IMG/VR virus record: IMGVR_UViG_2778261538_000001
Length of the DNA: 43,878 nt
Source: a virus
Taxonomy: Duplodnaviria; Heunggongvirae; Uroviricota; Caudoviricetes
Reading direction: 5' to 3' (one strand)
The notes below the pieces were generated by a model. The model was not told where the DNA came from. It ran no database searches and saw nothing but the letters and a program-made list of their open reading frames with translations. The position numbers were made by a program, and so were the translations under genes. This document shows, piece after piece, positions 2,015 through 21,944 of the stretch (its first letter is position 1; each line of letters starts with the position of its first letter).

Positions 2015-2112
2015 CTTCCATTAATCCCTGAATTGTTGGTTAATACGCTTGAGGGTGAATGCGAATAATAGAAAAGGAGCCTGTAGCTCCCTGATGATTT
2101 TGCTTTTCATGT

Positions 2113-2328
2113 TCACCGTTCCTTAAAAACGCCGTTTAACATGCCGATCGCTAGGCTTAAATGAGTCGGTGTGAATCCCATCAGCGTTACCGTTTCGCGG
2201 TGCTTCTTCAGTACGCTACGGCAAATGTCATCGACGTTTTTATCCGGAAACTGCTGTCTGGCTTTTTTGATTTCACAATTAGCCTGACGGGCAATGCTGC
2301 GAAGGGCGTTATTATGTTCTATTGTCAT
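2113..2328 (-). CDS. Hypothetical protein, about 71 aa (ATG at 2328; the longer 2113..2466 ORF overlaps the upstream gene)
   Basis: ORF in operon context; start chosen at the internal ATG that avoids overlap with 2336..3088. Confidence 0.3.
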   Translation of the reverse strand: MTIEHNNALRSIARQANCEIKKARQQFPDKNVDDICRSVLKKHRETVTLMGFTPTHLSLAIGMLNGVFKER

Positions 2329-2335
2329 ATTGGCC

Positions 2336-3088
2336 TCACACTTCGAATGCCAACTGAGGGGTAAAGACGTCCCGTTCAGCGTTGTAATTAAGTGAACTGG
2401 CACTGTTGAATGATTCAATGCGTTCCACAAGAACTTGCGTACGGGTTTCTTTACTTGCGGGAGCATATGGCGAACCTACCCAGGATTTGTCGATGCCTAT
2501 ATTTCTTGCGACGTTCGTGCTGTCTGCAGACGAAAGCGGTACATGAGTAAAAATGTCTTTATTTAACATCCGTAACCCATGAATCTTGGTGATTGGGTAG
2601 CCGTACTGATCTACAACATGACGTATAAGATCGCGTAGTTTAGCCCGACACGCTCTCGGTCGTTTTGCATCGTATTCCCCCATCGAGCCGATGCAGACGC
2701 GGGGAAACTCATGGCACAGACGAATAAATCGCTCATCTGGTTCGTTCATGTGCCACACCGGAGCACCAATAAATTTACCGTGAGGCCATGCCGCAATCAG
2801 GGCGTCATTCTCTTCACTGGTTCCGCCGATAACATCCGGGATAACCGCGAATGAGAAACGAGGGTGATTACCCCAGCGTTCAACAAATCTGTAATATTCA
2901 TTCCAGTCTACGGCCTTGTTTTTTGTCCAGAATGTGAATGCACCATTATCAAGAGCAAATGATTGGGTGACTTCGGAAGCCAGCTCAATCTGAGCTGGAT
3001 TAGCAAAACTGATGAATGCGTGTCTGCCTTTCCAGGCTTTCAACGCACAGGTATCGGGAGTTATTGGACCACCGTGAAAATGAATCAT
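2336..3088 (-). CDS. Conserved hypothetical early-left protein, 250 aa
   Basis: Long ORF, coding-like composition, start overlaps the stop of the small upstream ORF (ATGA). Confidence 0.6.
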   Translation of the reverse strand: MIHFHGGPITPDTCALKAWKGRHAFISFANPAQIELASEVTQSFALDNGAFTFWTKNKAVDWNEYYRFVERWGNHPRFSFAVIPDVIGGTSEENDALIAAWPHGKFIGAPVWHMNEPDERFIRLCHEFPRVCIGSMGEYDAKRPRACRAKLRDLIRHVVDQYGYPITKIHGLRMLNKDIFTHVPLSSADSTNVARNIGIDKSWVGSPYAPASKETRTQVLVERIESFNSASSLNYNAERDVFTPQLAFEV

Positions 3089-3243
3089 ACACTCTCCCGT
3101 TTATTATTTATCTCCTCAGCCAGTCGCTGGGCTTTCAGCGGATTTCGGATAACAGAAGGCCCGGGAAATACCCAGCCTCGCTTTGTAACGGAGTAGACGA
3201 AAGTGATCGCACCTACCCGGATATTATCGTGAGGATGCTTCAT
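3085..3243 (-). CDS. Small hypothetical protein, 52 aa, translationally coupled to exo (upstream) and to the 250-aa gene (downstream)
   Basis: ATG at 3243 overlaps the exo stop; GGAG about 9 nt upstream; its stop overlaps the ATG at 3088. Confidence 0.4.
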
Positions 3244-3920
3244 CGCCATTGCTCCCCAAATACAAAACCAATTTCAGCCAGTGCCTCGTCCATTTTTTCG
3301 ATGAACTCCGGCACCATCTCGTCAAAACTCGCCATGTACTTTTCATCCCGCTCAACCACGACATAATGCAGTCCTTCACGCTTCATACGCGGGTCATAGT
3401 TGGCAAAGTACCAGGCATCTTTTCGCGTCACCCACATGCTGTACTGCACCTGGGCCATGTAAGCTGACTTTATGGCCTCGAAACCACCGAGCCGGAACTT
3501 CATGAAATCCCGGGAGGTAAACGGGCATTTCAGTTCAAGGCCGTTGCCGTCACTGCATAAACCATCTGGAGAGCAGGCGGTACGCATACTTTCGTCGCGA
3601 TAGATGATCGGTGATTCAGTAACATTCACGCCGGAAGTGAACTCAAACAGGGCTCTGGCGTCGTTCTCGTACTGTTTTCCCCAGGCCAGCGCTTTAGCGT
3701 TAACTTCCGGAGCCACACCGGTGCAAACCTCAGCAAGCAGGGTGTGGAAGTAGGACATTTTCATGTCAGGCCACTTTTTTCCGGAGCGGGGTTTTGCTAT
3801 TACGTTATGAACTTCTGAAGCTGTGATGACGCCGAGCCGTAATTTGTGCCACGCATCATCCCCCTGTTCGACAGCTCTCACGTCGATCCCGGTACGCTGC
3901 AGGATAATGTCCGGTGTCAT
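3240..3920 (-). CDS. exo: Lambda exonuclease (Red-alpha), 226 aa
   Basis: Translation [40 protein letters not shown]... matches lambda Exo almost residue for residue (from memory). Confidence 0.97.
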
Positions 3921-4702
3921 GCTGCCACCTTCTGCTCTGCGGCTTTCTGTTTCAGGAATCCAAGAGCTTTTACTGCTTCGGCCTGTGTCAGTTCTGACGA
4001 TGCGCGAATGTCGCGGCGAAATATCTGGGAACAGAGCGGCAATAAGTCGTCATCCCATGTTTTATCCAGGGCGATCAGCAGAGTGTTAATCTCCTGCATG
4101 CTTTCATCGTTAACCGGAGTGATGTCGCGTTCCGGCTGACGTTCTGCAGTGTATGCGGTATTTTCGACAATGCGCTCGGCTTCATCCTTGTCATAGATAC
4201 CAGCAAATCCGAAGGCCAGACGGGCACACTGAATCATAGCTTTATGCCGTAACATTCGTTTGGGATGCGACTGCCACGGTCCCGTGATTTCTCTGCCTTC
4301 GCGGGTTTTGAATGGTTCGCGGCGGCATTCATCCATCCACTCGGTAACGCAGATCGGATGATTACGGTCCTTGCGGTAAATCCGGCATGTACATGATTCA
4401 TTGTCCTGCTCAAAGTCCATGCCATCAAACTGCTGGTTTTCATTAATGATGCGGGACCAGCCATCAACGCCCACCACAGGAACGATGCCGTTCTGCTTAT
4501 CAGGGAAGGCGTAAATTTCTTTCGTCCACGGATTAAGGCCGTACTGGTTGGCGACGATCAGCAATGCGATGAACTGCGCATCGCTGGCATCACCTTTAAA
4601 TGCCGTCTGACGAAGAGTGGTGATCAGTTCCTGTGGGTCGACAGAATCCATGCCGACACGTTCAGCCAGCTTCCCGGCTAGCGTTGCGAGTGCTGTACTC
4701 AT
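3917..4702 (-). CDS. bet: Lambda Bet (Red-beta) single-strand annealing protein, 261 aa
   Basis: Translation matches lambda Bet; overlaps exo start by 4 nt as in lambda. Confidence 0.97.
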
Positions 4703-4707
4703 CCGTT

Positions 4708-5004
4708 TTATACCTCTGAATCAATATCAACATGGTGGTGAGCAATGGTTTCAACCATGTACCGGATGTGTTCTGCCATGCGCTCCTGAAACTCAACATC
4801 GTCATCAAACGCACGGGTAATGGCTTTTTTGCTGGCCCCGCAGCGTTGCAAATGATCGATGCAGAGTGATTCAAACAGGTGCTGTGGAAGACCTTTTTCC
4901 ATGTCGTCTGCCAGTTCTGCCTCTTTCTCTTCACGGGCGATCTGCTGGTAGTGACGCGCCCAGCTTTGAGCCTCAAGACGATCCTGAATGTAATAAGCGT
5001 TCAT
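4708..5004 (-). CDS. gam: Gam (RecBCD inhibitor), short 98-aa form only
   Basis: Translation [21 protein letters not shown]... equals the C-terminal 98 aa of lambda Gam; no in-frame upstream start is available for the long form. Confidence 0.9.
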
Positions 5005-5079
5005 GGCTGAACTCCTGAAAATGGCTGTGAAAATATCGCCCGCGAAATGCCGGGCTGATTAGGAAAACAGGAAAGGGGA

Positions 5080-5370
5080 TTAGTGATTCAGGCCGTTGCC
5101 GCGCCCGTCGAGAAAAACTTCCACGAGCAAATCACGGGTATAAGTGCGCTCGATGCCGCGATGCAGATAAAGCCGTCCGCGTAAATTAGCTGATGCAGTC
5201 CAGGTACCATCTTTGTGTTTGACCAGCATTCCTGGCATGACCGCACCTCGATTAACGGTCTGCGTTCCGTAATGTTGATGAACCATAAAAACTCCTGCCC
5301 GTAAGCTGGGCTGCTGAACATATAGAGACTTCTGCGCGTATTCAGGCGGTGGATGGCCGCCGGTTGTCAT
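5080..5370 (-). CDS. Hypothetical early-left protein (about 96 aa from ATG at 5370; the 136-aa ORF to 5490 would need a TTG start)
   Basis: ORF in the position occupied by N/kil/cIII in lambda; GAGG upstream of the ATG at 5370; identity not recognised. Confidence 0.4.
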
Positions 5371-5539
5371 AACTAAGCCGCCTCGTTGAAACGACTGAGG
5401 TATGAAGTGTTGAGTTGATTTCAGCTGGTCACACCGACGTTCACGCGTCCGCTTCACCCCTCGCACTTCCCGAAGCCTGCTGAAATTCAAGCTGCGGATC
5501 TAAGCGGTCATCGCAACGGTGAATCAGGTGGTTGCCGTA

Positions 5540-5650
5540 TCGTTGTGTTGTTGCGATGAATTTATTTAAAACTATAGTTGTTTTGTCGTCAACAACAAAA
5601 GTTGTTTTATTGGTTGTTTTAGATGTAACTGGTTGTATTTAGGATGGGTT
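5540..5650 (-). promoter_or_regulatory. Candidate oL/pL region: GTTGTT/AACAAC inverted repeats with leftward TTGACG-17-TTAAAT promoter-like hexamers
   Basis: Palindromes GTTGTT-N8-AACAAC and AACAAC-N4-GTTGTT at about 5577-5606 share the half-site seen in the cI-cro intergenic region. Confidence 0.45.
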
Positions 5651-5733
5651 TATTTTGTGACTTGCATCGCATAGCGATAACTGAAGGGAGATTGTGGTGG
5701 TTTTTTGAACGGTATACGTGATGAGGGGAGGGG

Positions 5734-5762
5734 ATAAAAGAAAACCCGGCACGGTGGCCGGG
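5734..5762 (-). terminator. Rho-independent terminator closing the cI-kinase-phosphatase operon
   Basis: CCCGGC-acggtg-GCCGGG stem-loop followed on the minus strand by TTTTCTTTTAT, immediately 3' of the phosphatase stop. Confidence 0.7.
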
Positions 5763-5766
5763 AAGT

Positions 5767-6510
5767 TTACAAATACTTTACATTTACCGCTATAAGAGAA
5801 TAATCGTCAGTCGGGCCTTTTGTCTCTATTCTTCGCATTAGGCTGGAGGCAAACCTTGATGCGGTTGACAATGTACGGTAAGAAAATCGTGGGCGTTGCT
5901 CCCAAAAGGTATGCGCGCCATCAGACATGATGAATAGAGATAGAACACCATCGTCAAGAGGAAGTTCATCTTTATCAATATTTATGACTTGATGTTGAAG
6001 GGGGATCTTGGCAGCAAGTGCAGTTGTAATAATATTTTTACCTTTTGCATTTTTGAGCTGTCGAGCTGTATAAATACCGCTATCTATCAACATTTGATGT
6101 TGAGTATGATCTGTTGTTAATTGGATTAGCTTATTTCCATTTTTTAAATAAACACGACAGTCACCTACATGTATAATTGTTAGACCTTGATTGTGAAGTA
6201 GGCACATTGTTAAAGTTGTAGCAGCAGATGCTAATTCTTTATCAACTGACGAAAGAGATGCCACCTTTTCTTGTAGGGTCTTAAGTAAGGATAAGACATT
6301 GTCTTCATGAGTGAAGCTGTCTTTAATACTATACAAATGATTTATTACTGCTGCAGATGCTTCTTTTCCTCCTTTATAACCACCAACCCCATCAGCTATA
6401 GCCATAAGATAACCATTTGGTGTTTGAAGTGGATAAAGCACGCTATCTTGATTTTCCCTGCCATTATGTTTTGGTACAGAAAATATGGATGATGAGAGTA
6501 TGCTAATCAT
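5767..6510 (-). CDS. PP2C-family Ser/Thr protein phosphatase, 247 aa
   Basis: Motifs AIADGVGG, HVGDCRVY and FIMSDGAH in the translation; overlaps kinase stop by 4 nt; AT-rich. Confidence 0.8.
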   Translation of the reverse strand: MISILSSSIFSVPKHNGRENQDSVLYPLQTPNGYLMAIADGVGGYKGGKEASAAVINHLYSIKDSFTHEDNVLSLLKTLQEKVASLSSVDKELASAATTLTMCLLHNQGLTIIHVGDCRVYLKNGNKLIQLTTDHTQHQMLIDSGIYTARQLKNAKGKNIITTALAAKIPLQHQVINIDKDELPLDDGVLSLFIMSDGAHTFWEQRPRFSYRTLSTASRFASSLMRRIETKGPTDDYSLIAVNVKYL

Positions 6511-7232
6511 AAGCGTTTCAACTCCAATTCCTCAAAGATCTGCTCTACGGTCAGGAATCTTTTGTTAAGTTGTCTATGCGTACATTTGTTTATTATATCA
6601 TCAAAACCATCAATATTTAATTCTTCAATTAAAATACCAATTGAATATATATCTGATTGTTTTGAATATCCGTTGAGGAAAACGTTGTAATCAAAGTATT
6701 TAGGAGTAGCGGGGTATTGGCCAATTTGTGTTAATAGCTGTGTATTGGCATCTGGTGACACATTTTTTGCAAGGCCGAAGTCAGATAACTTATAAATTCC
6801 ATCTTTAAATTTTAGTACATTTAGTGGTTTTATATCCCGATGAAGATATCCTTTCTTATGAATCCATCCGACGGCATTTAGTACCATTTTTACAATAGAG
6901 ATTTTTTCAGCCTTTGTAAGAGTTCCACTTTTTATTTCTTCTTCAAGATTTGTTTCTGCTAGTTCCATTACGAACCAAGGCTGAGCATTCTGTAAGTGGC
7001 ATATGAATATTTGGACAATATTAGTATGCAGGCATTCAGTTTGATATCTTACTTCTCGTTCAAATCTGGTAAAGAGTTCAGGATCTGTTGCATCAGGTCG
7101 TAAAATTTTTCTGGCATATAGACCACAAATTTTTCTTTGTGAGTTATATAACCTTATTTTTTCTACAAGGCCAAAACCGCCAGAACCAATTACTTCTAGG
7201 GGTTCTATTAGGTAATTCCCACGTTCTTCCAT
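6507..7232 (-). CDS. Minimal Hanks-type Ser/Thr protein kinase, 241 aa
   Basis: Gly-rich loop GSGGFG, conserved Lys (YARK), catalytic loop HRDIKPLN, DFG motif (LSDFGLAK); AT-rich; directly downstream of cI. Confidence 0.85.
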   Translation of the reverse strand: MEERGNYLIEPLEVIGSGGFGLVEKIRLYNSQRKICGLYARKILRPDATDPELFTRFEREVRYQTECLHTNIVQIFICHLQNAQPWFVMELAETNLEEEIKSGTLTKAEKISIVKMVLNAVGWIHKKGYLHRDIKPLNVLKFKDGIYKLSDFGLAKNVSPDANTQLLTQIGQYPATPKYFDYNVFLNGYSKQSDIYSIGILIEELNIDGFDDIINKCTHRQLNKRFLTVEQIFEELELKRL

Positions 7233-7327
7233 TGTTCATCCTTTTAAGTTAGACAAAAGGAAAAATATAATGCAATGTTATCGATGCTTTTTTGAAGCCA
7301 AAGTTAACTTGTTGAATTTATGTCGAA

Positions 7328-8017
7328 TTATCCATGCTTCCTATACGTCTGCGGCATGCTCCCGATGACTTTCCCGAAGATGAATACCCGGTTCATCTCG
7401 TCTTTCTCGATTGGGTCCCACGGTGAGTAGCTCTTGTTATCAGAGATAACCAGCAGTTTATCCTTCATCATTTGCAGGCGCTTTACATGGGCTGTGTCGT
7501 CGTACAGAAACGCATAGATACCATCACCGTCGAAAGATTTAACCGTGATATCAACGAACAGCAGATCACCTGGTTCGATCGTTCCTGACATGCTGTCACC
7601 GCGTACGTTAATGATACGGATATTTTCCGCCTTCCTGCCATCGAACATGTGACGAGCATCGTCAAACGAATACTCAACCGAACGTAGAACTTCTACAAAC
7701 TCACGGTTGATGACTCCCGGCCCGGCACTCACTTCGATATCAAGAACGTCAATCTTAAAGTATTTGGAATGGCTGACAGTTGTTTGTATTGGTTGCACTG
7801 TACTGTCTGACATATTTCCAACGCCAGAAGATAACCATTCTGCGCGCACACCCAAAGCGTTCGCGATCTCCACGATTTTAGTTGTTTGGTTAGCTTTCCC
7901 TGTTTCGATTTTCTGAATAGCTGCTTGGCTAACCCCGACCAAATCCCCAAGCGCCTTTTGTGTAAGGCCTCGCGCTAATCTGGCTTCTTTAAGTCTTTCT
8001 GAGAGTGTTGTTTTCAT
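7328..8017 (-). CDS. cI: CI-type prophage repressor (HTH plus LexA-like S24 autopeptidase domain), 229 aa from ATG at 8017
   Basis: N-terminal HTH (LTQKALGDLVGVSQAAIQKIETG), C-terminal GDSM and VKRL Ser/Lys dyad motifs; divergent from cro. Confidence 0.85.
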   Translation of the reverse strand: MKTTLSERLKEARLARGLTQKALGDLVGVSQAAIQKIETGKANQTTKIVEIANALGVRAEWLSSGVGNMSDSTVQPIQTTVSHSKYFKIDVLDIEVSAGPGVINREFVEVLRSVEYSFDDARHMFDGRKAENIRIINVRGDSMSGTIEPGDLLFVDITVKSFDGDGIYAFLYDDTAHVKRLQMMKDKLLVISDNKSYSPWDPIEKDEMNRVFIFGKVIGSMPQTYRKHG

Positions 8018-8121
8018 AGTCCAAATGTACAACCAAGGTTTTATTTCATCAAACGAAAATGGTTGTTGACTAAAAACAACCATGGTTTTAATCTTGATTC
8101 AAATTAACCACGGAGGTTGTT
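8018..8121. promoter_or_regulatory. oR operator / pRM-pR divergent promoter region
   Basis: Palindromes AACCAAGGTT (8031-8040), GGTTGTT-N7-AACAACC (8061-8081), AACCATGGTT (8078-8087); rightward TTGACT (8066-8071)-17 bp-TAATCT (8089-8094); GGAGG RBS before cro. Confidence 0.55.
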
Positions 8122-8352
8122 ATGAACCCAGCCATCAAAACAGCGATCAATATCGTTGGTTCACAAAAGAAACTAGGCGCTGCCTGCGAAGTTTCACAGC
8201 AGGCCGTCTATAAGTGGCTTCACAACAAAGCAAAGGTATCCCCTGAACATGTCGGCAGCATTGTTACGGCTACTGGTGGAGTAGTGAAGGCATACCAGAT
8301 TCGCCCGGATCTTCCGAAGTTGTTTCCACACACTGAAAAGAACGCAGCTTAA
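8122..8352 (+). CDS. cro: Cro-like HTH regulator (YdaS-like), 76 aa
   Basis: Small HTH protein divergent from cI at the immunity region. Confidence 0.75.
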   Translation: MNPAIKTAINIVGSQKKLGAACEVSQQAVYKWLHNKAKVSPEHVGSIVTATGGVVKAYQIRPDLPKLFPHTEKNAA

Positions 8353-8364
8353 ATTTCCATTTCA

Positions 8365-8376
8365 CGCTCTTTAACA
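8365..8376 (+). promoter_or_regulatory. boxA-like motif CGCTCTTTAACA (possible nutR)
   Basis: Close match to lambda boxA (CGCTCTTA...) between cro and the next gene; no convincing boxB hairpin seen. Confidence 0.3.
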
Positions 8377-8421
8377 ATAAGCAATCAACTTAACAGTCAA
8401 TTCAAACTAAAGGAGTCAATT

Positions 8422-8961
8422 ATGCAACCACTTACATACCAACAGACTAGCGGATTTAGCCCGACTGCGGTGATAAATCGTTCTCAAACAAAACAAGCTC
8501 CAGGCCACGAAAAAATCCGTGATGCCGTCCGCGCCTGGTCGGCTGTAGATAATCAGGATGTCGTTGCCGCACTCATTGTGAATGAGTATCGGGAGCAGGG
8601 CGGCGGCACCATCGATTTCCCTGATGATGTCAGCCGTGCACGCCAGAAGATGTTCCGCTTCCTCGATAACAAATTCGATTCTGAAAAATACCGAAATAAC
8701 GTGCGTGAACTGACCCCGGCAATTCTGGCGGTACTACCGCTGGAATATCGCGGTTACCTAGTTGAGCAGGATAGCTTCATGGCTCGGCTGGCTGAAATGG
8801 AAAAGGAACTCAGTGAGGCAAAGCAGGCGGTCATTCTCAACGCACCACGCCACCAGAAACTGAAGGAGATGAGTGAAGGCATTGTGTCGATGTTTCGAGT
8901 GGACCCGGATCTGGCTGGTCCACTGATGGCGATGGTCACCACCATGCTGGGGGCAATATGA
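8422..8961 (+). CDS. CII-position regulatory protein (YdaT-like), 179 aa
   Basis: Position immediately after cro and before O; no catalytic motif recognised. Confidence 0.55.
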   Translation: MQPLTYQQTSGFSPTAVINRSQTKQAPGHEKIRDAVRAWSAVDNQDVVAALIVNEYREQGGGTIDFPDDVSRARQKMFRFLDNKFDSEKYRNNVRELTPAILAVLPLEYRGYLVEQDSFMARLAEMEKELSEAKQAVILNAPRHQKLKEMSEGIVSMFRVDPDLAGPLMAMVTTMLGAI

Positions 8962-9047
8962 CAGGTTCAGAAATGGCGAAAGCCGGTCTGCTGGAACAGA
9001 ACCGACTTTCAGGTGCAAATCGTAACACACTCATTGCGGGAGGAATT

Positions 9048-9977
9048 ATGGCAAACACTGCTGAGATATTCAATTTTCCAGTGCCGGATGCGGCACAAAA
9101 GGAGCCGCGCGTGGCAGATCTCGATGATGGTTATACGCGCATTGCAAATGAGTTGCTGGAAGCTGTGATGCTGGCCGGATTAACACAGCACCAGCTTCTG
9201 GTCTTTCTGGCTGTCATGCGCAAAACATATGGCTTTAATAAAAAACTGGATTGGGTTAGCAACGAGCAACTTTCCGAATTAACCGGGATATTGCCGCACA
9301 AGTGTTCTGCTGCAAAAAGTGTTCTGGTAAAGCGTGGGATTTTTATTCAGAGCGGGCGGAATACCGGCATTAATAATGTGGTCAGTGAATGGTCTACATT
9401 ACCCGAATCAGGTAAGAAAAATAAAGTTTACCTGAAAGAGGTAAATTTACCTGAATCAGGTAAAAAAAGTTTACCCAAATCAGGTAAAGGCGTTTACCCG
9501 AATCAGGTAAACACAAAAGACAAACTAACAAAAGACAATATAAAACCTTTTTCGTCCGAGAATTCTGGCGAATCCTCTGACCAACCAGAAAACGATCTTC
9601 CTGTGGTGAAACCGGATGCTGCAATTCAGAGCGGCAGCAAGTGGGGGACAGCAGAAGACCTGACCGCCGCAGAGTGGATGTTTGACATGGTGAAGACCAT
9701 CGCGCCATCAGCCAGAAAACCGAATTTTGCAGGGTGGGCTAACGATATCCGCCTGATGCGTGAACGTGACGGACGTAACCACCGCGACATGTGCGTGCTG
9801 TTCCGCTGGGCATGCCAGGACAACTTCTGGTCCGGTAACGTGCTAAGTCCGGCCAAACTCCGCGACAAGTGGACCCAACTCGAAATCAACCGTAACAAGC
9901 AACAGGCAGGCGTGACAGCTAGCAAACCAAAACTCGACCTGACAAACACAGACTGGATTTACGGGGTGGATCTATGA
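9048..9977 (+). CDS. O: Replication initiator O, hybrid: non-lambda N-terminal DNA-binding half, lambda-like C-terminal half (309 aa from ATG at 9048)
   Basis: N-terminus shows the lambda-O pattern (ADLDDGY...LTGILP...) with divergent sequence; C-terminus ...KWTQLEINRNKQQAGVTASKPKLDLTNTDWIYGVDL matches lambda O; GGGAGG RBS at 9037. Confidence 0.85.
   Translation: MANTAEIFNFPVPDAAQKEPRVADLDDGYTRIANELLEAVMLAGLTQHQLLVFLAVMRKTYGFNKKLDWVSNEQLSELTGILPHKCSAAKSVLVKRGIFIQSGRNTGINNVVSEWSTLPESGKKNKVYLKEVNLPESGKKSLPKSGKGVYPNQVNTKDKLTKDNIKPFSSENSGESSDQPENDLPVVKPDAAIQSGSKWGTAEDLTAAEWMFDMVKTIAPSARKPNFAGWANDIRLMRERDGRNHRDMCVLFRWACQDNFWSGNVLSPAKLRDKWTQLEINRNKQQAGVTASKPKLDLTNTDWIYGVDL
9399..9510. repeat. Replication origin iterons inside O: four to five copies of about 18 bp TTTACC(C/T)(G/A)AATCAGGTAA, followed by an AT-rich stretch
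   Basis: Directly visible tandem-spaced repeats at about 9399, 9425 (degenerate), 9446, 9470 and 9493; AT-rich segment 9511-9560. Confidence 0.75.
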
Positions 9978-10675
9978 AAAACATCGCCGCACAGATGATT
10001 AACTTTGACCGTGAGCAGATGCGCCGGATCGCCAACAACATGCCGGAACAGTACGACGAAAAGCCGCAGGTACAGCAGGTAGCGCAGATAATCAACGGTG
10101 TATTCAGCCAGTTACTGGCAACTTTCCCGGCGAGCCTGGCTAATCGTGACCAGAACGAACTGAACGAAATCCGCCGCCAGTGGGTTCTGGCTTTCCGGGA
10201 AAACGGGATCACCACGATGGAACAGGTGAGCGCCGGAATGCGTGTTGCCCGTCGGCAGAATAGACCATTTCTGCCATCACCCGGGCAGTTTGTTGCATGG
10301 TGCCGGGAAGAAGCATCCGTTACCGCCGGGCTGCCAAACGTCAGCGAGCTGGTTGATATGGTTTACGAGTATTGCCGGAAGCGTGGTCTGTATCCGGATG
10401 CAGAGTCTTATCCGTGGAAATCAAACGCGCACTACTGGCTGGTTACCAACCTGTATCAGAACATGCGGGCCAATGCGTTGACTGACGCGGAATTACGGCG
10501 CAAGGCTGCCGATGAACTGTCCTGTATGACCGCGCGAATTAACCGTGGTGAGGCGATACCTGAACCAGTAAAACAACTTCCTGTCATGGGCGGTAGACCT
10601 CTAAATCGTGCACAGGCTCTGGCGAAGATCGCAGAAATCAAAGCTAAGTTTGGGCTGAAAGGAGCAAGTGTATGA
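9974..10675 (+). CDS. P: Replication protein P (DnaB loader), 233 aa
   Basis: Translation MKNIAAQMINFDREQMRRIANNMPEQYDEKPQVQQVAQIINGV... matches lambda P nearly identically. Confidence 0.97.
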   Translation: MKNIAAQMINFDREQMRRIANNMPEQYDEKPQVQQVAQIINGVFSQLLATFPASLANRDQNELNEIRRQWVLAFRENGITTMEQVSAGMRVARRQNRPFLPSPGQFVAWCREEASVTAGLPNVSELVDMVYEYCRKRGLYPDAESYPWKSNAHYWLVTNLYQNMRANALTDAELRRKAADELSCMTARINRGEAIPEPVKQLPVMGGRPLNRAQALAKIAEIKAKFGLKGASV

Positions 10676-10974
10676 CGGGCAAAGAGGCAATTATTCATTA
10701 CTTGGGGACTCATAAGAACTTCTGTGCGCAGGACGTTGCCGCGGTAACAGGCGCAACCGTAACCAGCATAAATCAGGCTGCGGCTAAAATGGCGCGGGCA
10801 GGAATCCTGGTCGTTGATGGTAAGGTCTGGCGAACGGTGTATTATCGGTTCGCTACCAGAGAAGAATGGGAAGGAAAGGTGAGCACGAATTTGATTTTTA
10901 AGGAGTGTCGCCAGAGTGCCGCGATGAAACGGGTATTGAGGGTATATAAAAGAACATCAATGGGTACACAATGA
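10672..10974 (+). CDS. ren: Ren, 100 aa
   Basis: Translation MTGKEAIIHYLGTH... matches lambda Ren over most of its length. Confidence 0.88.
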   Translation: MTGKEAIIHYLGTHKNFCAQDVAAVTGATVTSINQAAAKMARAGILVVDGKVWRTVYYRFATREEWEGKVSTNLIFKECRQSAAMKRVLRVYKRTSMGTQ

Positions 10975-11041
10975 TGAAACAGGTGAGTTGAGTTCAAACT
11001 GTAGTACAATTCTCTCCAGTTTGAACAGGAAAGAATATGCT

Positions 11042-11374
11042 ATGAATCCTTATATTTATCTTGGTGGTGCAATACTTGCAGAGGTCATTGGTACAACCTT
11101 AATGAAGTTTTCAGAAGGTTTTACACGGTTATGGCCATCTGTTGGTACAATTATTTGTTATTGTGCATCATTCTGGTTATTAGCTCAGACGCTGGCTTAT
11201 ATTCCTACAGGGATTGCTTATGCTATCTGGTCAGGAGTCGGTATTGTCCTGATTAGCTTACTATCATGGGGATTTTTCGGCCAACGGTTGGACCTGCCAG
11301 CCATTATAGGCATGATGTTGATTTGTGCCGGTGTGTTGGTTATTAATTTATTGTCACGAAGCACACCACATTAA
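11042..11374 (+). CDS. emrE: SMR-family multidrug efflux transporter EmrE, 110 aa
   Basis: Translation from MNPYIYLGGAILAEVIGTTLMKFSEGFTRLWPSVGT... matches E. coli EmrE; start chosen at ATG 11042. Confidence 0.93.
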   Translation: MNPYIYLGGAILAEVIGTTLMKFSEGFTRLWPSVGTIICYCASFWLLAQTLAYIPTGIAYAIWSGVGIVLISLLSWGFFGQRLDLPAIIGMMLICAGVLVINLLSRSTPH

Positions 11375-11629
11375 AAATAATTTGTTTTTAAACGACTAAA
11401 ATATGGAGGCTCGTATATTTATATGGGCCTCGTTTTATGCTTTTTGTTAATGTCTTTAGTTTTTATTCATTCTTTTGTGCTTTCAAGATTATGGTGTAAG
11501 AAAATTGCAATACGATTATTGTTGTATATTCAAGATAATGTGACCTTAATTGTCTTTTTAAATAAAAATTAAACAAAAATCATATCTCACCACTAAGGTT
11601 TATAAAAGCATACTTTAGCAGGTGTCACC

Positions 11630-13156
11630 ATGAAAAAAGCCATAGCATATATGCGATTTTCATCACCAGGTCAGATGTCTGGTGATTCATTAAACCGCCA
11701 GAGAAGGCTTATTACTGAATGGCTAAAGGTAAATAGTGATTATTACCTTGATACCGTAACGTATGAAGATTTGGGGTTAAGCGCATTCAATGGAAAGCAT
11801 GCACAATCAGGAGCTTTTTCGGAATTTTTAGATGCTATAGAACATGGTTATATATTGCCAGGGACTACATTGTTAGTTGAAAGTCTGGACAGACTTTCAA
11901 GAGAAAAAGTCGGTGAAGCGATTGAGCGTCTGAAATTGATTTTGAATCACGGTATTGATGTTATAACTCTTTGCGATAATACAGTCTATAATATTGACTC
12001 ATTGAATGAGCCATATTCATTAATAAAAGCCATACTTATAGCACAAAGGGCAAATGAAGAAAGCGAGATAAAGTCAAGTCGGGTTAAATTATCATGGAAG
12101 AAAAAACGGCAGGATGCACTGGAGTCAGGCACGATTATGACGGCTTCTTGTCCGAGATGGCTCTCATTGGATGACAAAAGAACGGCTTTTGTTCCAGACC
12201 CCGACAGGGTGAAAACTATTGAGCTAATTTTTAAACTCAGGATGGAAAGGCGCTCATTGAATGCAATAGCCAAGTATTTAAATGATCATGCTGTAAAGAA
12301 TTTCTCAGGAAAAGAAAGTGCATGGGGACCTTCTGTAATTGAAAAATTATTAGCGAATAAAGCTCTGATAGGTATATGCGTACCTTCATATCGTGCAAGA
12401 GGCAAAGGGATAAGTGAAATCGCTGGCTATTATCCCAGAGTCATATCAGATGATTTGTTTTACGCTGTACAGGAAATTCGGTTGGCACCTTTTGGTATTA
12501 GCAATAGTAGCAAGAATCCTATGCTAATAAATCTACTTCGAACAGTTATGAAGTGTGAGGCTTGTGGTAATACCATGATTGTTCATGCGGTATCTGGAAG
12601 TTTGCATGGCTATTATGTTTGTCCGATGAGAAGATTACATCGATGTGACAGACCATCAATAAAAAGAGATTTGGTTGATTATAATATCATTAATGAATTG
12701 CTTTTTAATTGTAGCAAAATTCAACCAGTTGAAAACAAGAAAGATGCTAATGAAACTTTAGAGTTAAAAATTATTGAGCTTCAGATGAAAATTAATAATT
12801 TAATCGTTGCATTGTCTGTCGCGCCTGAAGTTACCGCTATAGCAGAGAAAATAAGACTATTAGATAAGGAATTACGAAGGGCTTCGGTATCATTAAAAAC
12901 TTTGAAGAGTAAAGGGATGAGTTCACTTGGTGATTTTCATGCTATTGATTTAACCAGTAAAAATGGGCGAGAGCTATGTCGTACACTTGCCTATAAAATA
13001 TTCGAAAAAATTATAATTAATACAGATAATAAAACCTGTGATATCTATTTTATGAATGGCATTGTTTTTAAACACTATCCTTTAATGAAAGTAATATCCG
13101 CCCAGCAGGCGATAAGTACTCTTAAATATATGGTTGATGGTGAGATTTATTTTTGA
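11630..13156 (+). CDS. Large serine recombinase (resolvase/invertase catalytic domain plus recombinase and zinc-ribbon domains), 508 aa; YbcK-like
   Basis: N-terminal YMRFSSPGQ catalytic-serine motif; Cys cluster CEACGN...YYVCPMRRLHRCD; very AT-rich. Confidence 0.8.
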   Translation: MKKAIAYMRFSSPGQMSGDSLNRQRRLITEWLKVNSDYYLDTVTYEDLGLSAFNGKHAQSGAFSEFLDAIEHGYILPGTTLLVESLDRLSREKVGEAIERLKLILNHGIDVITLCDNTVYNIDSLNEPYSLIKAILIAQRANEESEIKSSRVKLSWKKKRQDALESGTIMTASCPRWLSLDDKRTAFVPDPDRVKTIELIFKLRMERRSLNAIAKYLNDHAVKNFSGKESAWGPSVIEKLLANKALIGICVPSYRARGKGISEIAGYYPRVISDDLFYAVQEIRLAPFGISNSSKNPMLINLLRTVMKCEACGNTMIVHAVSGSLHGYYVCPMRRLHRCDRPSIKRDLVDYNIINELLFNCSKIQPVENKKDANETLELKIIELQMKINNLIVALSVAPEVTAIAEKIRLLDKELRRASVSLKTLKSKGMSSLGDFHAIDLTSKNGRELCRTLAYKIFEKIIINTDNKTCDIYFMNGIVFKHYPLMKVISAQQAISTLKYMVDGEIYF

Positions 13157-13478
13157 GTAATAATCACTTTTTCAACCGTGCTATGGTATGAAAGTAAAGT
13201 AACTAATATGATATTAACTATCTTGAACGAAGCGCCCTGAGCTATAGTTTTACTATAGGCACTGCCACTGGATGTTGGCATTCTTGCTCTAGTAGCTCAA
13301 CAATACCCAATCACAAAACAATTCACTGATAACAAACTTTGTGCACGTGCTTGGTTATGGCGAACAGGTGATGTTAACCTCTTGCCTGAATGCCACTCCA
13401 CTTCATTAAGTATCTGAGCACCGAGAGGCTGGTCACGCCCCCATTAAAAATAATTTCTTTTGAATCGAGTGAAATAGG

Positions 13479-13505
13479 TTAGCCCGCATAAGTGCGGGCT
13501 GCTTT
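13479..13505 (+). terminator. Stem-loop terminator (AGCCCGCA-taag-TGCGGGCT then GCTTTTT)
   Basis: Perfect 8-bp stem with T-run on the plus strand; abuts the 3' end of the minus-strand esterase gene. Confidence 0.5.
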
Positions 13506-14549
13506 TTACAGGTCAGCGTTTGTTTTTTGTTGTTGGGTAGCGGTTTTTATGGGGGTTCCCAGGTTTTTAGTAAACCACTCAACAACTCTGTTTATAATAA
13601 TTGGCTGATACCATGTATTATCGCCATGCTCAGCCCCTTCTACCAGAACGTACTCAGCGTTATCGCCGTTCTTCTTCAACATCCTGAATAGTTTGGCGCT
13701 TTGCTCAGGTGAAACCAGAGTGTCTTTGCTACCATGCATAATAAGAAATGGGGGTTTTACTCCTTTCATATGTCCGATTGGACTGGCGTTTAGCGCTTTT
13801 TCTTTTGACGCTGTTATGGGGGCTCCCGCAAAACTTCTGAATGCAGGGCCATTGATCATTAAGGCTTCGGTTACGGCAGGAGATCGATGAACCTCCTGCA
13901 CTGATTCAGGGAACCCCTCGCCAATATTCAACAAGTCAGAAATCCCATAAAGTGTGGCAACTGCCTGAACATCTGCTGATTGCTGAAGAAAGTCACCTTT
14001 ATTAAAGGTTTTGTCACCATTTGTAGTTCCCATCATCTGGGCAAGCCATCCACCGGCAGAGTCACCCAGAACTCCGATTCTTTGAGGATCAATCCCATAA
14101 TCGCTGGCATGTTCTCTCAAGTAACGTATTGCAGCTTTCCCATCCTCAACTGGTGCTGGAAATGTATCAGGAATTGTTCTGTATTCTACAGCGGCCACAA
14201 CAAAACCAGCTTCAGCCAGAGCCATTCTCATTTCAATAAATTTGTCATGTTCAGAAGACATGAATCCGCCGCCGGGATAATAAATAATGGCTGGTTTTAA
14301 ATCATTTGTTCGCGGGACAAGAACTGACATGTGAAGCTGTCTGACAGAACGAGTTCCTTTTATCTGGGAATAAACAACATCACCAATGAGATCGACCTGG
14401 TTTCTGGTGGGTGAAACACTAATGATATCTGCACCCGGGGTGTAACCAGGAAGATTAGTCTGGACAGGTGTTGCACAACTCCCGACCGACATGGCCATTG
14501 ACATACCATACAATAGTGTTGCAGATGATAATATCTTGTTAATTTTCAT
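13506..14549 (-). CDS. Secreted alpha/beta-hydrolase (esterase/lipase family) with N-terminal signal peptide, 347 aa
   Basis: GDSAGG nucleophile elbow, YYPGGGF oxyanion-hole-like motif, hydrophobic N-terminus ending ...SVGSC (possible lipobox). Confidence 0.8.
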   Translation of the reverse strand: MKINKILSSATLLYGMSMAMSVGSCATPVQTNLPGYTPGADIISVSPTRNQVDLIGDVVYSQIKGTRSVRQLHMSVLVPRTNDLKPAIIYYPGGGFMSSEHDKFIEMRMALAEAGFVVAAVEYRTIPDTFPAPVEDGKAAIRYLREHASDYGIDPQRIGVLGDSAGGWLAQMMGTTNGDKTFNKGDFLQQSADVQAVATLYGISDLLNIGEGFPESVQEVHRSPAVTEALMINGPAFRSFAGAPITASKEKALNASPIGHMKGVKPPFLIMHGSKDTLVSPEQSAKLFRMLKKNGDNAEYVLVEGAEHGDNTWYQPIIINRVVEWFTKNLGTPIKTATQQQKTNADL

Positions 14550-14996
14550 GTTTTACATGCCTTGACTTATCGGATGAAATTCTCTTACTGAATTTAACGG
14601 CAGTTTAATAGCAGTACAACTCGTGGTAGCTAGGGAAATATCCCAGTCGTGGTTAAGGTTGTACTTGACGGCTATTATTTCAACAATGCTTAAAGTGAGA
14701 GCTTAAGGTTATGCGTATGTTTTACAGTCCGAGTAGATTCTGACCAATAGCTTCTTTGTATAATTCTGTCAGAAATAAATCTTGGCTTGCATGAAGTTTG
14801 AGACCTTATCTTGTTTGATTATGAATAATCAATTCGCCATAATTGTATCACCGGAGCCTGAACAACTCCTGTGACTTCTGCGCTAAACGGGGACGTTTAT
14901 GCGCACATACAATCCAACCTATCTTCTCCATTCACAGATGCAGAAATGCACCTGCGATTTTTTGCATCCAGCGTTTGGCCTCTGCGGAGGTGAATC

Positions 14997-15452
14997 GTGA
15001 ACCTCCCACAAGATGGCATCAAATTGCATCGCGGCAACTTCACCGCTTTCGGCCAGCAGATCCAGCCTTATCTGGAGGACGGAAAATGCTTTCGCATGGT
15101 GCTTAAACCGTGGCGTGAGAAACGCAGTCTTTCCCAGAATGCACTCAGCCATATGTGGTACAGCGAAATCAGTGAATACCTCATCAGCAGGGGGAAATCG
15201 TTCGCTACCGCAGCATGGGTAAAAGATGCTCTCAAACACACATACCTCGGTTATGAAACCAAGGACCTGGTTGATGTCGTAACCGGCGAAATCACTACTA
15301 TCCAGTCGTTACGCCATACCTCCGATCTTGATACCGGAGAGATGTATGTCTTCCTGTGTAAGGTTGAAGCTTGGGCGATGAATATTGGCTGCCACCTGAC
15401 TATTCCGCAGCGCTGCGAGTTCCAGCTGCTGCGCGACAAGCAGGAGGCGTAA
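14997..15452 (+). CDS. NinB-family recombination protein (YbcN-like), 151 aa, GTG start
   Basis: Translation [15 protein letters not shown]... matches DLP12 YbcN as I recall it; GGAGG RBS at 14986. Confidence 0.75.
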
Positions 15453-15622
15453 TGGCTACACCGCTTATTCGTATCATGAACGGACACATCTACAAAGTAC
15501 CAAATCGTCGTAAGCGTAAACCTGAGCTGAAGCCATCCGAAATACCAACACTGCTCGGGTATACCGCCAGCCTGGTTGATAAAAAATGGTTGCGACTGGC
15601 AGCAAGGAGGAATCATGGCTGA
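15452..15622 (+). CDS. ninE: NinE, 56 aa
   Basis: Translation [37 protein letters not shown]...; ATG overlaps the preceding stop. Confidence 0.8.
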   Translation: MATPLIRIMNGHIYKVPNRRKRKPELKPSEIPTLLGYTASLVDKKWLRLAARRNHG

Positions 15623-17058: not shown

Positions 17059-18141
17059 TTAGAACTGATAAACCAGACCTACAGCGACGATGTCGTCGGT
17101 ATCAATACCAGCTGTTTTGGTAAACTTACTATCGTCAATTAAGTTGATTTTGTAATCAACAAAAGTGGACATGTTTTTATTAAAGTAGTAAGTAGCACCG
17201 ACATCGACATACTTGACTAAGTCTCGGTCACCATGAACACCAAGGTCTTTACCTTTTGACTGAAGGTAAGCAACAGATGGTCGCAGACCGAAGTCAAACT
17301 GATATTGTGCTACTGCTTCAAAGTTTTGTGCTTTGTTTGCAATATGGTTATTACCAAAAACGGTCATATTCTGAGTTTCAGAATATGTGGTAGCCAGATA
17401 GATATTGTTCGCATCATATTTCAGGCCTGCAGCCCATACTTCCGCATTTTTGCCGGAGGCATTGAATTTGCTCTTACCATAGGCGACCTGACCGTCAGTG
17501 CGATCTGATTTAGCATAGGTTGCACCCACGCCGAATCCTTCATACTCATAAGTAGTGGAGAAACCGAAACCATCACCATTGGCTTCAGTTACGTCAGTGC
17601 GGTCATTTTTACCCTGATACTGAGCAGCAAAGTTCAGGCCATCGACCAGACCAAAGAAGTCGTTGTTACGATAAGTTGCAACACCAGTAGTGCGACCAGT
17701 CATGAACACATCTGTTTGGGTCCAGGTATCACCACCGAATTCTGGCAGGACGTCAGTCCACGCACCGATGTCGTATGCTACACCGTAGTTACGGCCGTAA
17801 TCGATTGAGCCGTAATCACCAAATTTCAGGCCTGCAAATGCAAGACGGGTTTTGTCTTTGGAAGAACCTTGAGATTCAGCACGGTTGCCTTTGAATTCAT
17901 ATTCCCACTGACCGAAACCAGTCAGTTGATCGTTGATTTGGGTTTCACCTTTGAAGCCAAGACGGGCATAAGTAGTATCACCATCATCTGCATCATTAGA
18001 GGAGAAGTAGTGCTTGGCATTAACTTTCCCGTATAGATCCAGCTTGTTACTGTCTTTATTATAAATTTCAGCTGCCTGAGCAGACATCGCCATCAGTACT
18101 GATGCAGCTACAGCAGAAATTGCCACTGTTAATTTTTTCAT
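17059..18141 (-). CDS. nmpC: OmpC/OmpF-family general porin (NmpC/Lc type), intact, with signal peptide, 360 aa
   Basis: Signal peptide ending [12 protein letters not shown]-terminal ...VGLVYQF terminal Phe, typical 16-strand porin; antisense to late operon. Confidence 0.93.
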
Positions 18142-20314: not shown

Positions 20315-20935
20315 ATGAAAGATCAAGATGTTAGGTTCGCGGTGCATCATAAGCTTTTGAAAGAATCGCATTTAGATCCAGACTGTCTTGTGGTCGATGA
20401 ATTTTCCATATCCCTTGGCGCCAGTAGAGCAGACATTGCTGTAATAAATGGTGTTATACACGGGTACGAGCTCAAAAGTGAATATGACTCTTTGGAGCGT
20501 TTGCCTCTTCAAATCAAGCATTATTCTTCTGTAATGGACAAGGTTACTCTTGTCGTAGCTGAGAAACACCTTGAGGGAGCATTAAAGTTAATCCCAGGTT
20601 GGTGGGGCGTTAAAACGGTTTCTGTTGGGCCAAAAGGCGCCATTCTTATAAAGCACATGCGTGGAGAAAAGCTTAATCGAAACCATGACACATTGATGCT
20701 CGCTCAATTGCTTTGGAAAGATGAATGTATCGACGTACTTGAACGATGGGGCTATTCCAAAGGAATCAAAAGCAAGCCCCGATTTGAGTTATGGAATATT
20801 ATTGCGGAAAATATTCCAATAGCGAATCTCAGGCTTGAAGTCAGAACAGCCTTAAAGAAACGCGTAGGCTGGAAAGTTAAGGCTTGGCAGGCTGAGTCTG
20901 CGCCAACCAATAAAGCTGTCTCACGACTAACGTAA
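20315..20935 (+). CDS. PD-(D/E)xK-like protein (possibly sce7726 family), 206 aa
   Basis: Motif VVDEF...RADIAV...GYELKSE (D...D...E-x-K) in the N-terminal half; AT-rich; convergent with and overlapping its partner. Confidence 0.6.
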   Translation: MKDQDVRFAVHHKLLKESHLDPDCLVVDEFSISLGASRADIAVINGVIHGYELKSEYDSLERLPLQIKHYSSVMDKVTLVVAEKHLEGALKLIPGWWGVKTVSVGPKGAILIKHMRGEKLNRNHDTLMLAQLLWKDECIDVLERWGYSKGIKSKPRFELWNIIAENIPIANLRLEVRTALKKRVGWKVKAWQAESAPTNKAVSRLT

Positions 20936-21944
20936 TATGGTGCGTATGTGCAACTTTACGCCATTCTTTAGAGCCGCCAGATTTGTTAGCGCCTAATGAT
21001 CTTTGGTAAATGTAATCATCCCCCCAACTAAATTTGGAGCCAAAGACTTGATACTCTGGCGAACTAACAAGGGTAGTACATAAGTTTTTAGTTTGGCCCC
21101 ATCCATTTCCTTTAACTGCGGTACCTTTTACAAAGATCCATGAGGTATCGTTCGAATATCTCACTGAGACATACTGAGACATGAAGCGTGGGTCTACGCT
21201 CGTAATGGTAGAGCTAGCGGTGGGATAATCACTAAAACTTGGCGTTCTTCCATTGCTAAAATTCTGTACTACGTACATCCAAAGATCGTATTCATGGCGC
21301 GGAATATGATGAACTTGATGTTGCGGTATCCCTGCCTGTGATGCCGGGTATGCGGTTGAAGATAAAATCAAGTTTCTCCACGGAGCTTGGCCTGATAATG
21401 TGTTGACCATGCTTAATGCTTGTTGTTTTAAACTATCAGTTGCGTTTTGAATATCTCCAAAATCAATGATTACATCAATTAAACTAGGATGAATATTTAA
21501 GTGGTTAACCAGACTTGTGAATTGGTGCCATGTCTGGGGGGTGATAGATATAGCGAGCCCATTGATTAAGTTGCGTTGAACAGCATGTATATAGTTTGTT
21601 GAATATGCGGGAGAAACAACAGGGATAATTTCCTTACCATTTACTCTAGCATCTTGGATACACATATCTAGAGGATGATGGCGGCTCGAACCATGTTTAT
21701 CTAAATATTTAACATCCAGCAAAACAGGACGATTGGCTTTCCAGGATGCCGCAAGGTTAATACCGAAGTCAGATAAGTAAGAACTCAAACTCTTCTTGTA
21801 GCATTCGTTTTCATAATCCCAGTCTATGTCTGGAATGGTAATGATCGGAGTAAAACCAGAGAGCGTAGTTTGATCTAAAAGCATCAGAGATTCATATTCA
21901 GCAGGCTTCCATTTCAGCTGTGGATAATATTGATGTTGACTCAT
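20877..21944 (-). CDS. Uncharacterised 355-aa protein, partner of the PD-(D/E)xK-like gene (possibly sce7725 / beta-protein family)
   Basis: Long AT-rich ORF convergent with 20315..20935, 59-nt 3' overlap; no catalytic motif recognised. Confidence 0.6.
   Translation of the reverse strand: MSQHQYYPQLKWKPAEYESLMLLDQTTLSGFTPIITIPDIDWDYENECYKKSLSSYLSDFGINLAASWKANRPVLLDVKYLDKHGSSRHHPLDMCIQDARVNGKEIIPVVSPAYSTNYIHAVQRNLINGLAISITPQTWHQFTSLVNHLNIHPSLIDVIIDFGDIQNATDSLKQQALSMVNTLSGQAPWRNLILSSTAYPASQAGIPQHQVHHIPRHEYDLWMYVVQNFSNGRTPSFSDYPTASSTITSVDPRFMSQYVSVRYSNDTSWIFVKGTAVKGNGWGQTKNLCTTLVSSPEYQVFGSKFSWGDDYIYQRSLGANKSGGSKEWRKVAHTHHITLVVRQLYWLAQTQPAKP

Follow-up and report, generated by a model that had tools for sequence, protein, structure and literature searches.

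ybcK encodes a large serine recombinase in the ren-ninB accessory slot of a lambdoid Escherichia coli prophage

The recombinase gene and its product

The stretch of DNA analysed here, 43,878 nucleotides long and hereafter called the window (IMG/VR record IMGVR_UViG_2778261538_000001), is a lambdoid prophage adjoining icd that appears complete and resembles DLP12 and phage 21. Our subject is one gene in the middle of its early region, ybcK, a single open reading frame (ORF) encoding a large serine recombinase of the integrase type (Table 1). RefSeq lists the product as a 'recombinase family protein'. It shares about 98% amino acid identity with the copy in the DLP12 prophage of Escherichia coli K-12 (b0544), and the approximately 4.5 kb surrounding the gene are 100% identical to a record of E. 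coli DETEC-P881, where it is annotated as ybcK. The analysis mainly re-identifies a gene that is already catalogued and annotated.

Table 1. Positions of ybcK, its domains and the other features discussed in the text. Domain limits are approximate; the three Pfam matches within YbcK exceed the curated cut-offs.
Feature	Nucleotides	Strand	Residues	Evidence and remarks
Lambda-type tyrosine integrase	1-1143	-		Arm-DNA-bind_1 and Phage_integrase; beside icd in the matching genome
Excisionase	1133-1369	-		adjoins the tyrosine integrase
Imported AT-rich block: end of ren, emrE, ylcJ, ybcK	10948-13279	+		GC about 0.36 versus about 0.5 in the flanks; breakpoints versus PhiR5_1 and PhiR26_1
emrE, small multidrug resistance (SMR) efflux pump	11042-11374	+		Pfam Multi_Drug_Res, E 3.4e-35; constant left neighbour of ylcJ-ybcK in E. 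coli
D1-L, left repeat copy: emrE 3' untranslated region (UTR) with intrinsic terminator hairpin (11406-11431)	11366-11440	+		repeat search
ylcJ, hydrophobic small ORF	11423-11572	+	49 aa	Pfam YlcJ, E 1.9e-30
Reported sigma-70 promoter of ybcK, GTGACC-17-TAAAAA	11540-11568	+		PMC3946193; H-NS bound in K-12; Rho-dependent terminator in the leader downstream
ybcK, large serine recombinase (integrase-type)	11630-13156	+	508 aa	single ORF, ATG start
YbcK catalytic domain	11639-12112	+	4-161	Pfam Resolvase, E 8.9e-19
YbcK recombinase domain	12200-12481	+	191-284	Pfam Recombinase (PF07508), E 2.3e-14
YbcK zinc ribbon	12533-12700	+	302-357	Pfam Zn_ribbon_recom (PF13408), E 8.4e-8
YbcK predicted coiled coil	12665-12910	+	346-427	AlphaFold model
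YbcK C-terminal beta domain	12959-13150	+	444-507	AlphaFold model
Rha/P22AR-type antirepressor remnant, cut at both ends	13280-13434	+		77-81% nucleotide identity to the Rha genes of PhiR5_1 and PhiR26_1
D1-R, right repeat copy: second, diverged emrE 3' end, UTR and terminator (hairpin 13480-13501)	13439-13512	+		repeat search
Alpha/beta hydrolase (BD-FAE esterase family)	13506-14549	-		Pfam BD-FAE, E 3.2e-44; variable cargo 3' of ybcK
Fixed right edge of the variable slot (14814), then small ORF ylcH and ybcN (NinB-like)	14814-15452	+		homology resumes at 14814 in every comparison; NinB Pfam match

An initial annotation of this DNA, made without database searches, had described a resolvase-type catalytic N-terminus with the motif YMRFSSPGQ (residues 7-15 of YbcK) and a long C-terminal recombinase and zinc-ribbon region, and had recognized in this the architecture of serine integrases. 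In view of the Pfam domains, the PHROG matches, the invariant residues and the matches of the structural model, this description of the protein was correct. PHROG 95 ('integrase') matched YbcK with an E-value of 5.7e-120 and PHROG 125, which represents the invertase catalytic fold, with one of 2.3e-21. An alignment to the Listeria A118/LI serine integrase (4kis) paired residues 167-468, approximately the C-terminal 300, with its DNA-binding half and extended through its coiled coil. The AlphaFold model, with a mean predicted local distance difference test (pLDDT) of 81, comprised a catalytic domain, a long E-helix, a recombinase domain, a zinc ribbon and a C-terminal beta domain; helices 346-364, 369-397 and 401-427 were placed between strands of the zinc ribbon, as an inserted coiled coil. 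Its top structural matches were full-length serine integrase-DNA complexes (9dxd and 9dxh, E about 1e-18), followed by PhiC31, Bxb1 and LI.

In an alignment of 19 family sequences, R9, S11, Q15, D87, R88, R91 and E143/E144 were invariant, and so were the cysteines C309, C312, C331 and C339 of the zinc-ribbon region. Loss of the catalytic serine, which the initial annotation had proposed to look for, was thus not observed. With its complete catalytic set, a recombinase domain followed by a four-cysteine zinc ribbon and an inserted coiled coil, YbcK is, as judged from sequence and predicted structure, a large serine recombinase. An NCBIfam scan of the protein returned a weak match to XisF alone, far under the cut-off of that model, and a scan with PADLOC-DB 2.0 returned no defence family at E <= 0.01. 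The domain order and the catalytic Ser/Arg/Asp set are those of the A118/LI, Bxb1, PhiC31 and TP901-1 integrases, although identity to these proteins is only 14-20%. There are also differences in context: each of these enzymes is the sole integrase of its phage and is encoded beside attP at the prophage end, whereas ybcK is located in the middle of the early region of a tyrosine-integrase phage and has no identifiable att site.

A match to ybcK was found in 1690 of 5426 complete E. coli genomes and most of the gene in 1399, so that about one quarter to one third of complete E. coli genomes carry it. The block containing it was present at 98.5% nucleotide identity in the deposited complete phage genomes 4A7, Lambda_4C10, 1W, 3W, D2, Perceval and PhiR47_2, and the exact arrangement of DLP12 in phage PhiR34_1. 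The gene was intact in 12 deposited complete phage genomes and also in heavily deleted prophages. The alleles of the window, K-12, O157 and STEC388 all encode 508 intact residues, with a synonymous divergence (dS) of 0.11-0.16 and a ratio of nonsynonymous to synonymous divergence (dN/dS) of 0.07-0.08. ybcK is thus under strong purifying selection and, since copies remain intact even in heavily deleted prophages, it is not a decaying relic. An apparently divergent ybcK from strain HS-01 was set aside, as it looks like a product of sequencing error: many proteins nearby have accessions that are unique among these loci.

YbcK has been counted among 16 site-specific recombinases of K-12, with its function treated as unknown (PMC5426353, PMC7181518). 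It was tested for excision of the microcin H47 island with a negative result (PMC5426353). In BL21(DE3), overexpression of ybcK raised tolerance to sabinene and deletion lowered it; no mechanism was given and the gene was called function-unknown (PMC7181518). An RpoD promoter with an H-NS mark has been reported upstream of the gene in K-12 (PMC3946193), a Rho-dependent terminator within its leader (PMC4150792), and polyphosphate-dependent binding of its DNA by Hfq (PMC10954037). Our simple consensus promoter scan did not pick up the reported promoter in the window. In the literature searched, no paper assigned to YbcK a recombination activity, recombination sites or another characterised function.

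The ren-ninB slot and the surrounding prophage

The prophage begins at its icd-proximal end with int and xis, followed by exo, bet, gam and kil, a kinase/phosphatase pair, the repressor, O, P and ren. Then come emrE, ylcJ, ybcK and an alpha/beta hydrolase gene, ybcN, ninE, ybcO, rusA, ylcG and quuD, an ompC/nmpC-like porin gene, the lysis genes and the head and tail genes. It corresponds, in complete form, to the cryptic DLP12 prophage of K-12. In both, the same 508-residue YbcK is encoded downstream of ren-emrE-ylcJ and upstream of ybcN-ninE-ybcO-rusA-quuD. The window prophage differs in its site (icd instead of argU for DLP12), in being apparently complete, in carrying the hydrolase gene in place of ybcL-ybcM, and in having a second emrE 3' UTR to the right of ybcK.

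ybcK belongs to an AT-rich imported block (Table 1). In PhiR5_1 and PhiR26_1 the position of this block is taken by the 5' part of rha and by different cargo, either PD-lambda-1 or small ORFs. Across sister phages the slot between ren and ninB contains PD-lambda-1 with Rha, small ORFs with Rha, or emrE-ylcJ-ybcK-ybcLM. The remnant of rha left in the window is continuous with a P22AR_C ORF of strain STEC388. What follows ybcK also varies with the prophage type, namely ybcL-ybcM in K-12, nothing in O157, rha' and a hypothetical gene in STEC388 and the hydrolase in the window. The right edge of the slot is constant, whereas the breakpoints directly downstream of ybcK vary by prophage type (13195, 13222 and 13434). 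With its foreign GC content, a reported promoter, a variable slot and alleles that are free of ybcK, the segment is a phage moron or accessory cassette; the terminator counted among these features is that of emrE and lies upstream, and no clear terminator of its own follows ybcK. The view that the ybcK segment behaves as a discrete imported module is thereby partly supported.

The left side of the gene was constant. The stretch from ren through emrE and ylcJ to the start of ybcK was covered in 1387 E. coli genomes, compared with the 1399 covering ybcK, and in this species ybcK was seen solely behind emrE-ylcJ. ybcK has therefore neither transposed nor acted as a prophage integrase over this time span. 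Conversely, ylcJ was seen in E. coli solely with ybcK; among the matches listed, sampled down the ranking, there was no genome with emrE and ylcJ that lacked ybcK. YlcJ looks more like a small membrane peptide than like a directionality factor, and the start of its gene falls inside the terminator hairpin of emrE. The hydrolase gene on the other side is convergent with ybcK and encodes a lipoprotein-like signal sequence (...SVGSC); the two genes occur together in only 172 of the 5426 genomes.

The initial annotation had placed the recombinase inside a prophage that already has a tyrosine integrase. This is the case: integrase and excisionase genes lie at the icd-proximal end, and ybcK 11.6 kb inside the prophage. 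YbcK is not the integrase of its host prophage. It might still serve as a second phage integrase, using an alternative chromosomal attB by means of an attP elsewhere in the phage genome. Such a function would suit the full integrase-type architecture including the coiled coil, a homologue in Atlantibacter that is the last called gene of its prophage, about 540 bp from the 3' end of ssrA, and the location of proteins of a sister clade, described below, at an apparent island edge. However, among E. coli prophages none was observed whose end lay at ybcK, the phage DNA to the left of the gene was the same in essentially every copy, and the examined ybcK prophages were all inserted at sites of tyrosine integrases (icd, argU), with int genes intact or residual. 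We consider this function very unlikely.

Several further observations concern the prophage itself. The kinase/phosphatase pair (5767-7232, minus strand) is an insert of low GC (0.35) between the repressor and the kil and gam genes. The Ser/Thr kinase (6507-7232, minus strand) matched the defence models mad6, PD-T4-6 and Stk2 (E 1e-39 to 1e-27), and the PP2C-type phosphatase beside it (5767-6510, minus strand) matched PDC-M21C (E 8e-9); the pair is probably an exclusion system of the prophage. Just past the lysis genes, a 'sce7726 family' protein (20315-20935, plus strand) matched the PADLOC model 'cll' (E 4e-31) and is overlapped convergently by the gene of a 'beta family' protein (20877-21944, minus strand) that matched PD-Lambda-2_C (E 4e-32). 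This pair (20315-21944) is a second defence-like accessory insert. The porin gene (17059-18141, minus strand), a homologue of ompC and nmpC, is intact here; its immediate neighbour in the annotation of the K-12 DLP12 record is an IS5 transposase gene. Finally, the coordinate offset between positions 1-10600 of the window and an otherwise identical genome record shifts by one base upstream of 10600, which indicates at least one single-base insertion or deletion between the two.

Direct repeats, empty alleles and orientation

No att or inversion sites had been identified by eye in the initial annotation, which suggested a search for repeats flanking 11000-15000 in this and related genomes. We searched positions 10500-15500 and the whole window for direct and inverted repeats, and a single direct repeat, D1, stood out. 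Its two copies, D1-L and D1-R, form an imperfect direct repeat of 52-75 nt with 77% identity over 52 nt (11366-11417 versus 13439-13490) and the common core CATTAAAAATAATTT. D1-R was identical to the junction of emrE with the hydrolase gene in 'empty' prophages of the isolates F467 and Rb-50, and it retained traces of the last codons of emrE. Compared with F467, 2,073 bp are additional in the window, namely the ylcJ-ybcK segment bracketed by the D1 copies.

ybcK was lacking in two kinds of arrangement. In one, emrE was joined straight to the hydrolase gene (empty junction ACCACATTAAAAATAATTTCTTTTGAATCG); it was present in F467, in Rb-50 and in four IMG/VR contigs. In the other, an emrE-ybcL-ybcM remnant lies between fliE and yedF in roughly 2000 genomes at least, an estimate from sampled matches. 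One such fliE-yedF locus (NZ_CP069583.1, 2040408-2042550) contains a second emrE with 92% nucleotide identity, ybcL-ybcM and a fragment of ylcH but no ybcK, and is adjoined by an IS200/IS605 transposase gene and an SRAP pseudogene. It is an old prophage remnant that duplicates DLP12 cargo. The emrE module (window positions 10965-11382) also stands alone at the fliE locus.

These observations bear on the suggestion, made initially, that the recombinase marks a nested mobile element. An active mini-element would consist of ylcJ-ybcK, possibly with rha' (approximately 11384-13456), would be inserted and excised by YbcK just past the stop codon of emrE, and would have D1-L and D1-R as attL and attR. 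The bracketing by D1 together with the difference of 2,073 bp is the best evidence for it. Indeed, the empty junction matched exactly a crossover inside the core CATTAAAAATAATTT, with both flanks 99-100% identical; emrE-ybcL-ybcM without ybcK at the fliE locus contrasts with emrE-ylcJ-ybcK-ybcL-ybcM in DLP12; and at three other loci of the family a local gene is represented by diverged direct repeats on both sides of the recombinase and its cargo, and the recombinase gene points inward from the left-hand copy.

The properties of D1 itself point in another direction. The two copies are emrE 3' UTRs with terminators that have diverged to 77% identity, and this doubling, with its traces of emrE codons, suggests that two phages bearing emrE underwent unequal crossing-over. 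A cross of an emrE-ybcK-rha phage with an emrE-hydrolase phage is what would leave such a pair. Candidate attB, attP, attL and attR sites built from D1 showed a dyad symmetry no better than shuffled controls. Comparison of the 150 nt upstream of the gene with its 3' end at 30 loci gave no terminal inverted repeats that were significant against shuffles or consistent. The right-hand D1-like copy was absent in the K-12, O157 and STEC388 types, where the right breakpoints differ as described above, and the K-12 spacer 3' of ybcK gave no significant match to it. An exact search of metagenome and viral contigs for the predicted circle junction GCCCCCATTAAAAATAATTTGTTTTT returned 0 matches. The six empty alleles had private single nucleotide polymorphisms in common on both flanks, as well as diversity among themselves; they therefore represent one old separate lineage and not recurrent excision, which points to a single old event. 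The constant position of ybcK after emrE-ylcJ in E. coli adds to these points. Of the initial suggestion, what stands is a discrete imported segment that is absent from a few near-identical prophages and bracketed by D1; the evidence did not extend to an active element, which we regard as doubtful. Taken together, the repeat, dyad, terminal-repeat and comparative-breakpoint analyses yielded no convincing att site in cis, by methods that are blind to site pairs sharing only a dinucleotide.

The alternative initially offered, an inversion or excision switch controlling the island, fared worse. Here YbcK would invert a nearby segment, for instance the one with the hydrolase gene, and thereby control expression of the island. 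The hydrolase gene is indeed on the opposite strand directly downstream of ybcK. Gin, Cin and Pin invertases usually sit after tail-fibre genes, and several YbcK homologues likewise are found just past tail-fibre or tail-fibre-assembly genes. Relative to umuDC, the recombinase gene is oriented differently at different loci, and one homologue lies between pilV paralogues. On the other hand, the best inverted-repeat pairs around ybcK or any segment of the window were 14-24 nt long, which is chance level, and there were none at 12 homologous loci. The 172 genomes with the arrangement of the window matched as one collinear piece and no inversion was seen, orientation not having been screened genome by genome; in the empty-site prophages, too, the hydrolase gene kept the same orientation. 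Gin, Cin, Pin and Hin have the catalytic fold in common with YbcK, but they are proteins of about 190 aa with a C-terminal helix-turn-helix that act on inverted gix or hix sites with an enhancer. YbcK, in contrast, has the size of an integrase, with a coiled coil, and no inverted sites were found for it. Its features are thus not those of a DNA invertase of the Gin/Hin/Pin type, and a switch is very unlikely.

The YbcK family and the possible role of the enzyme

Orthologues of 505-522 aa with 41-61% identity to YbcK were found across Enterobacterales. In Pantoea and Atlantibacter they occupy the early, nin-like region of lambdoid prophages, equivalent to the position of ybcK. In Atlantibacter, Yersinia, Erwinia and Ewingella they follow tail-fibre or tail-fibre-assembly genes, often beside umuDC, SRAP or dinI cargo. 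Further contexts were islands with tyrosine integrases and CdiBA, and plasmids. Neighbour clustering of the YbcK clade revealed no conserved partner gene; umuDC and SRAP recurred as fellow cargo only. Two Atlantibacter copies at different phage positions share sequence only from -68 to the stop codon (76% nucleotide identity), so the mobile unit is essentially the gene with a short upstream region. A search for a conserved upstream motif across 14 loci yielded only a weak element resembling a -35 box.

At four loci of the clade, including the window, the recombinase and its cargo lie between diverged direct repeats of a local gene that have no common core from one locus to the next. This geometry is equally compatible with integrated circles and with unequal crossovers between syntenic genomes. 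In Citrobacter koseri (8145-13573 of locus L013), a YbcK homologue (49% identity) is accompanied by an ORF of 233 aa, and on either side of the two are an intact pilV-like gene, encoding a pilin with a KKQETRN repeat at its N-terminus, and a degraded paralogue of pilV. The locus, in a stretch that resembles a conjugative element, is possibly one of pilin variation. At another locus (L039) the replication gene P seemed to be split by the cassette, an interpretation that we rejected because the two pieces are overlapping paralogues.

A sister clade (loci L031-L038, from Mixta, Serratia, Leclercia, Rahnella, Erwinia, Mangrovibacter and Klebsiella) has 36-40% full-length identity to YbcK. Its recombinase gene abuts a T2SSE gene, for a hofB-like type IV pilus ATPase, that is truncated to profile positions 239-370, and is followed downstream by AbiTii, a small resolvase and Shedu. 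Read at the recombinase end, these loci look like defence islands with a fixed target gene, in which the recombinase would be the island integrase. The recombinase of this clade reads towards the downstream cargo, as does YbcK, but the junction with a host gene is theirs and has no equivalent at ybcK.

We therefore propose, with moderate confidence, that ybcK, a self-contained gene for an integrase-type serine recombinase, was captured and is now carried as cargo in the ren-ninB hot spot, where it is kept by selection and normally silenced; its recombination sites would not adjoin the gene. By analogy with the sister clade, its source would most likely be a small island mobilised by a serine recombinase. 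In K-12 the gene is normally held silent by H-NS, Hfq and Rho. Once produced, YbcK dimers would use their recombinase and zinc-ribbon domains to bind two sites, and their coiled coils would bring the sites together in synapsis. Ser11 would then cut all four strands, and one pair of subunits would rotate by 180 degrees before the strands are rejoined. The targets would act in trans and not beside the gene.

Several points weigh against this proposal. Since no target site was identified, the activity of YbcK is suggested by conservation alone. The strong purifying selection was not accompanied by a detectable rearrangement product, and the protein could have a role other than recombination. The bracketing by D1, the empty allele and the three similar loci of the family are more in keeping with a nested integrative element than with a simple orphan gene. 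An origin by capture from an island, moreover, is suggested by comparison with a clade that is only 36-40% identical.

Such a different role might be an accessory one in trans, in which YbcK would act on foreign or host DNA, to exclude or damage competitors, to switch a host locus or as a regulator, and would not mobilise its own DNA. The gene shares its hot spot with the defence gene PD-lambda-1, and the same prophage has PD-T4-6/Stk2-like and PD-Lambda-2-like genes. Its own promoter (PMC3946193), its intactness under purifying selection even in decayed prophages and the changes in sabinene tolerance of BL21(DE3), up on overexpression and down on deletion (PMC7181518), also agree with a function of this kind. 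However, YbcK matched no PADLOC model and the family has no conserved partner gene. A defence effector that is a large serine recombinase would, to our knowledge, be without precedent, which also counts against a role in trans. The sabinene phenotype comes without a mechanism and the gene is silenced in K-12. An accessory role in trans can accordingly be advanced only tentatively and is not what we would expect, though among the alternatives we rank it first, ahead of the nested element, a second integrase and an invertase.

Large serine recombinases such as TnpX of Tn4451 and TndX of Tn5397 move small elements through a circular intermediate and have minimal target requirements. A habit of this type, compared here by description, would fit the many positions of YbcK-family cassettes. 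E. coli ybcK differs from these elements in that it was not accompanied by multiple insertion contexts of high identity, conserved ends or a detected circular junction. It is conceivable, though unlikely, that recombinases of the YbcK family drive very small integrative cassettes, made up of the recombinase by itself or with minor cargo, that enter temperate phages and plasmids and are flanked on each side by a diverged duplicate of the local target, with the 3' site of emrE as one landing pad, or alternatively that they are trans-acting recombinases of the lysogen directed against other mobile DNA. If the first of these were true, serine recombinases would be one route by which accessory hot spots of lambdoid phages are loaded.

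In conclusion, our data remove the simplest ideas on a local role of ybcK. The interest that remains is that of a widespread, conserved and apparently competent serine integrase of E. coli without a known substrate. If YbcK, as we propose, is active on targets in trans, it would be a native large serine recombinase of E. coli with an undiscovered landing site, of interest to those who build tools for genome engineering, and would be relevant to the shuffling of accessory and defence genes into lambdoid phages.

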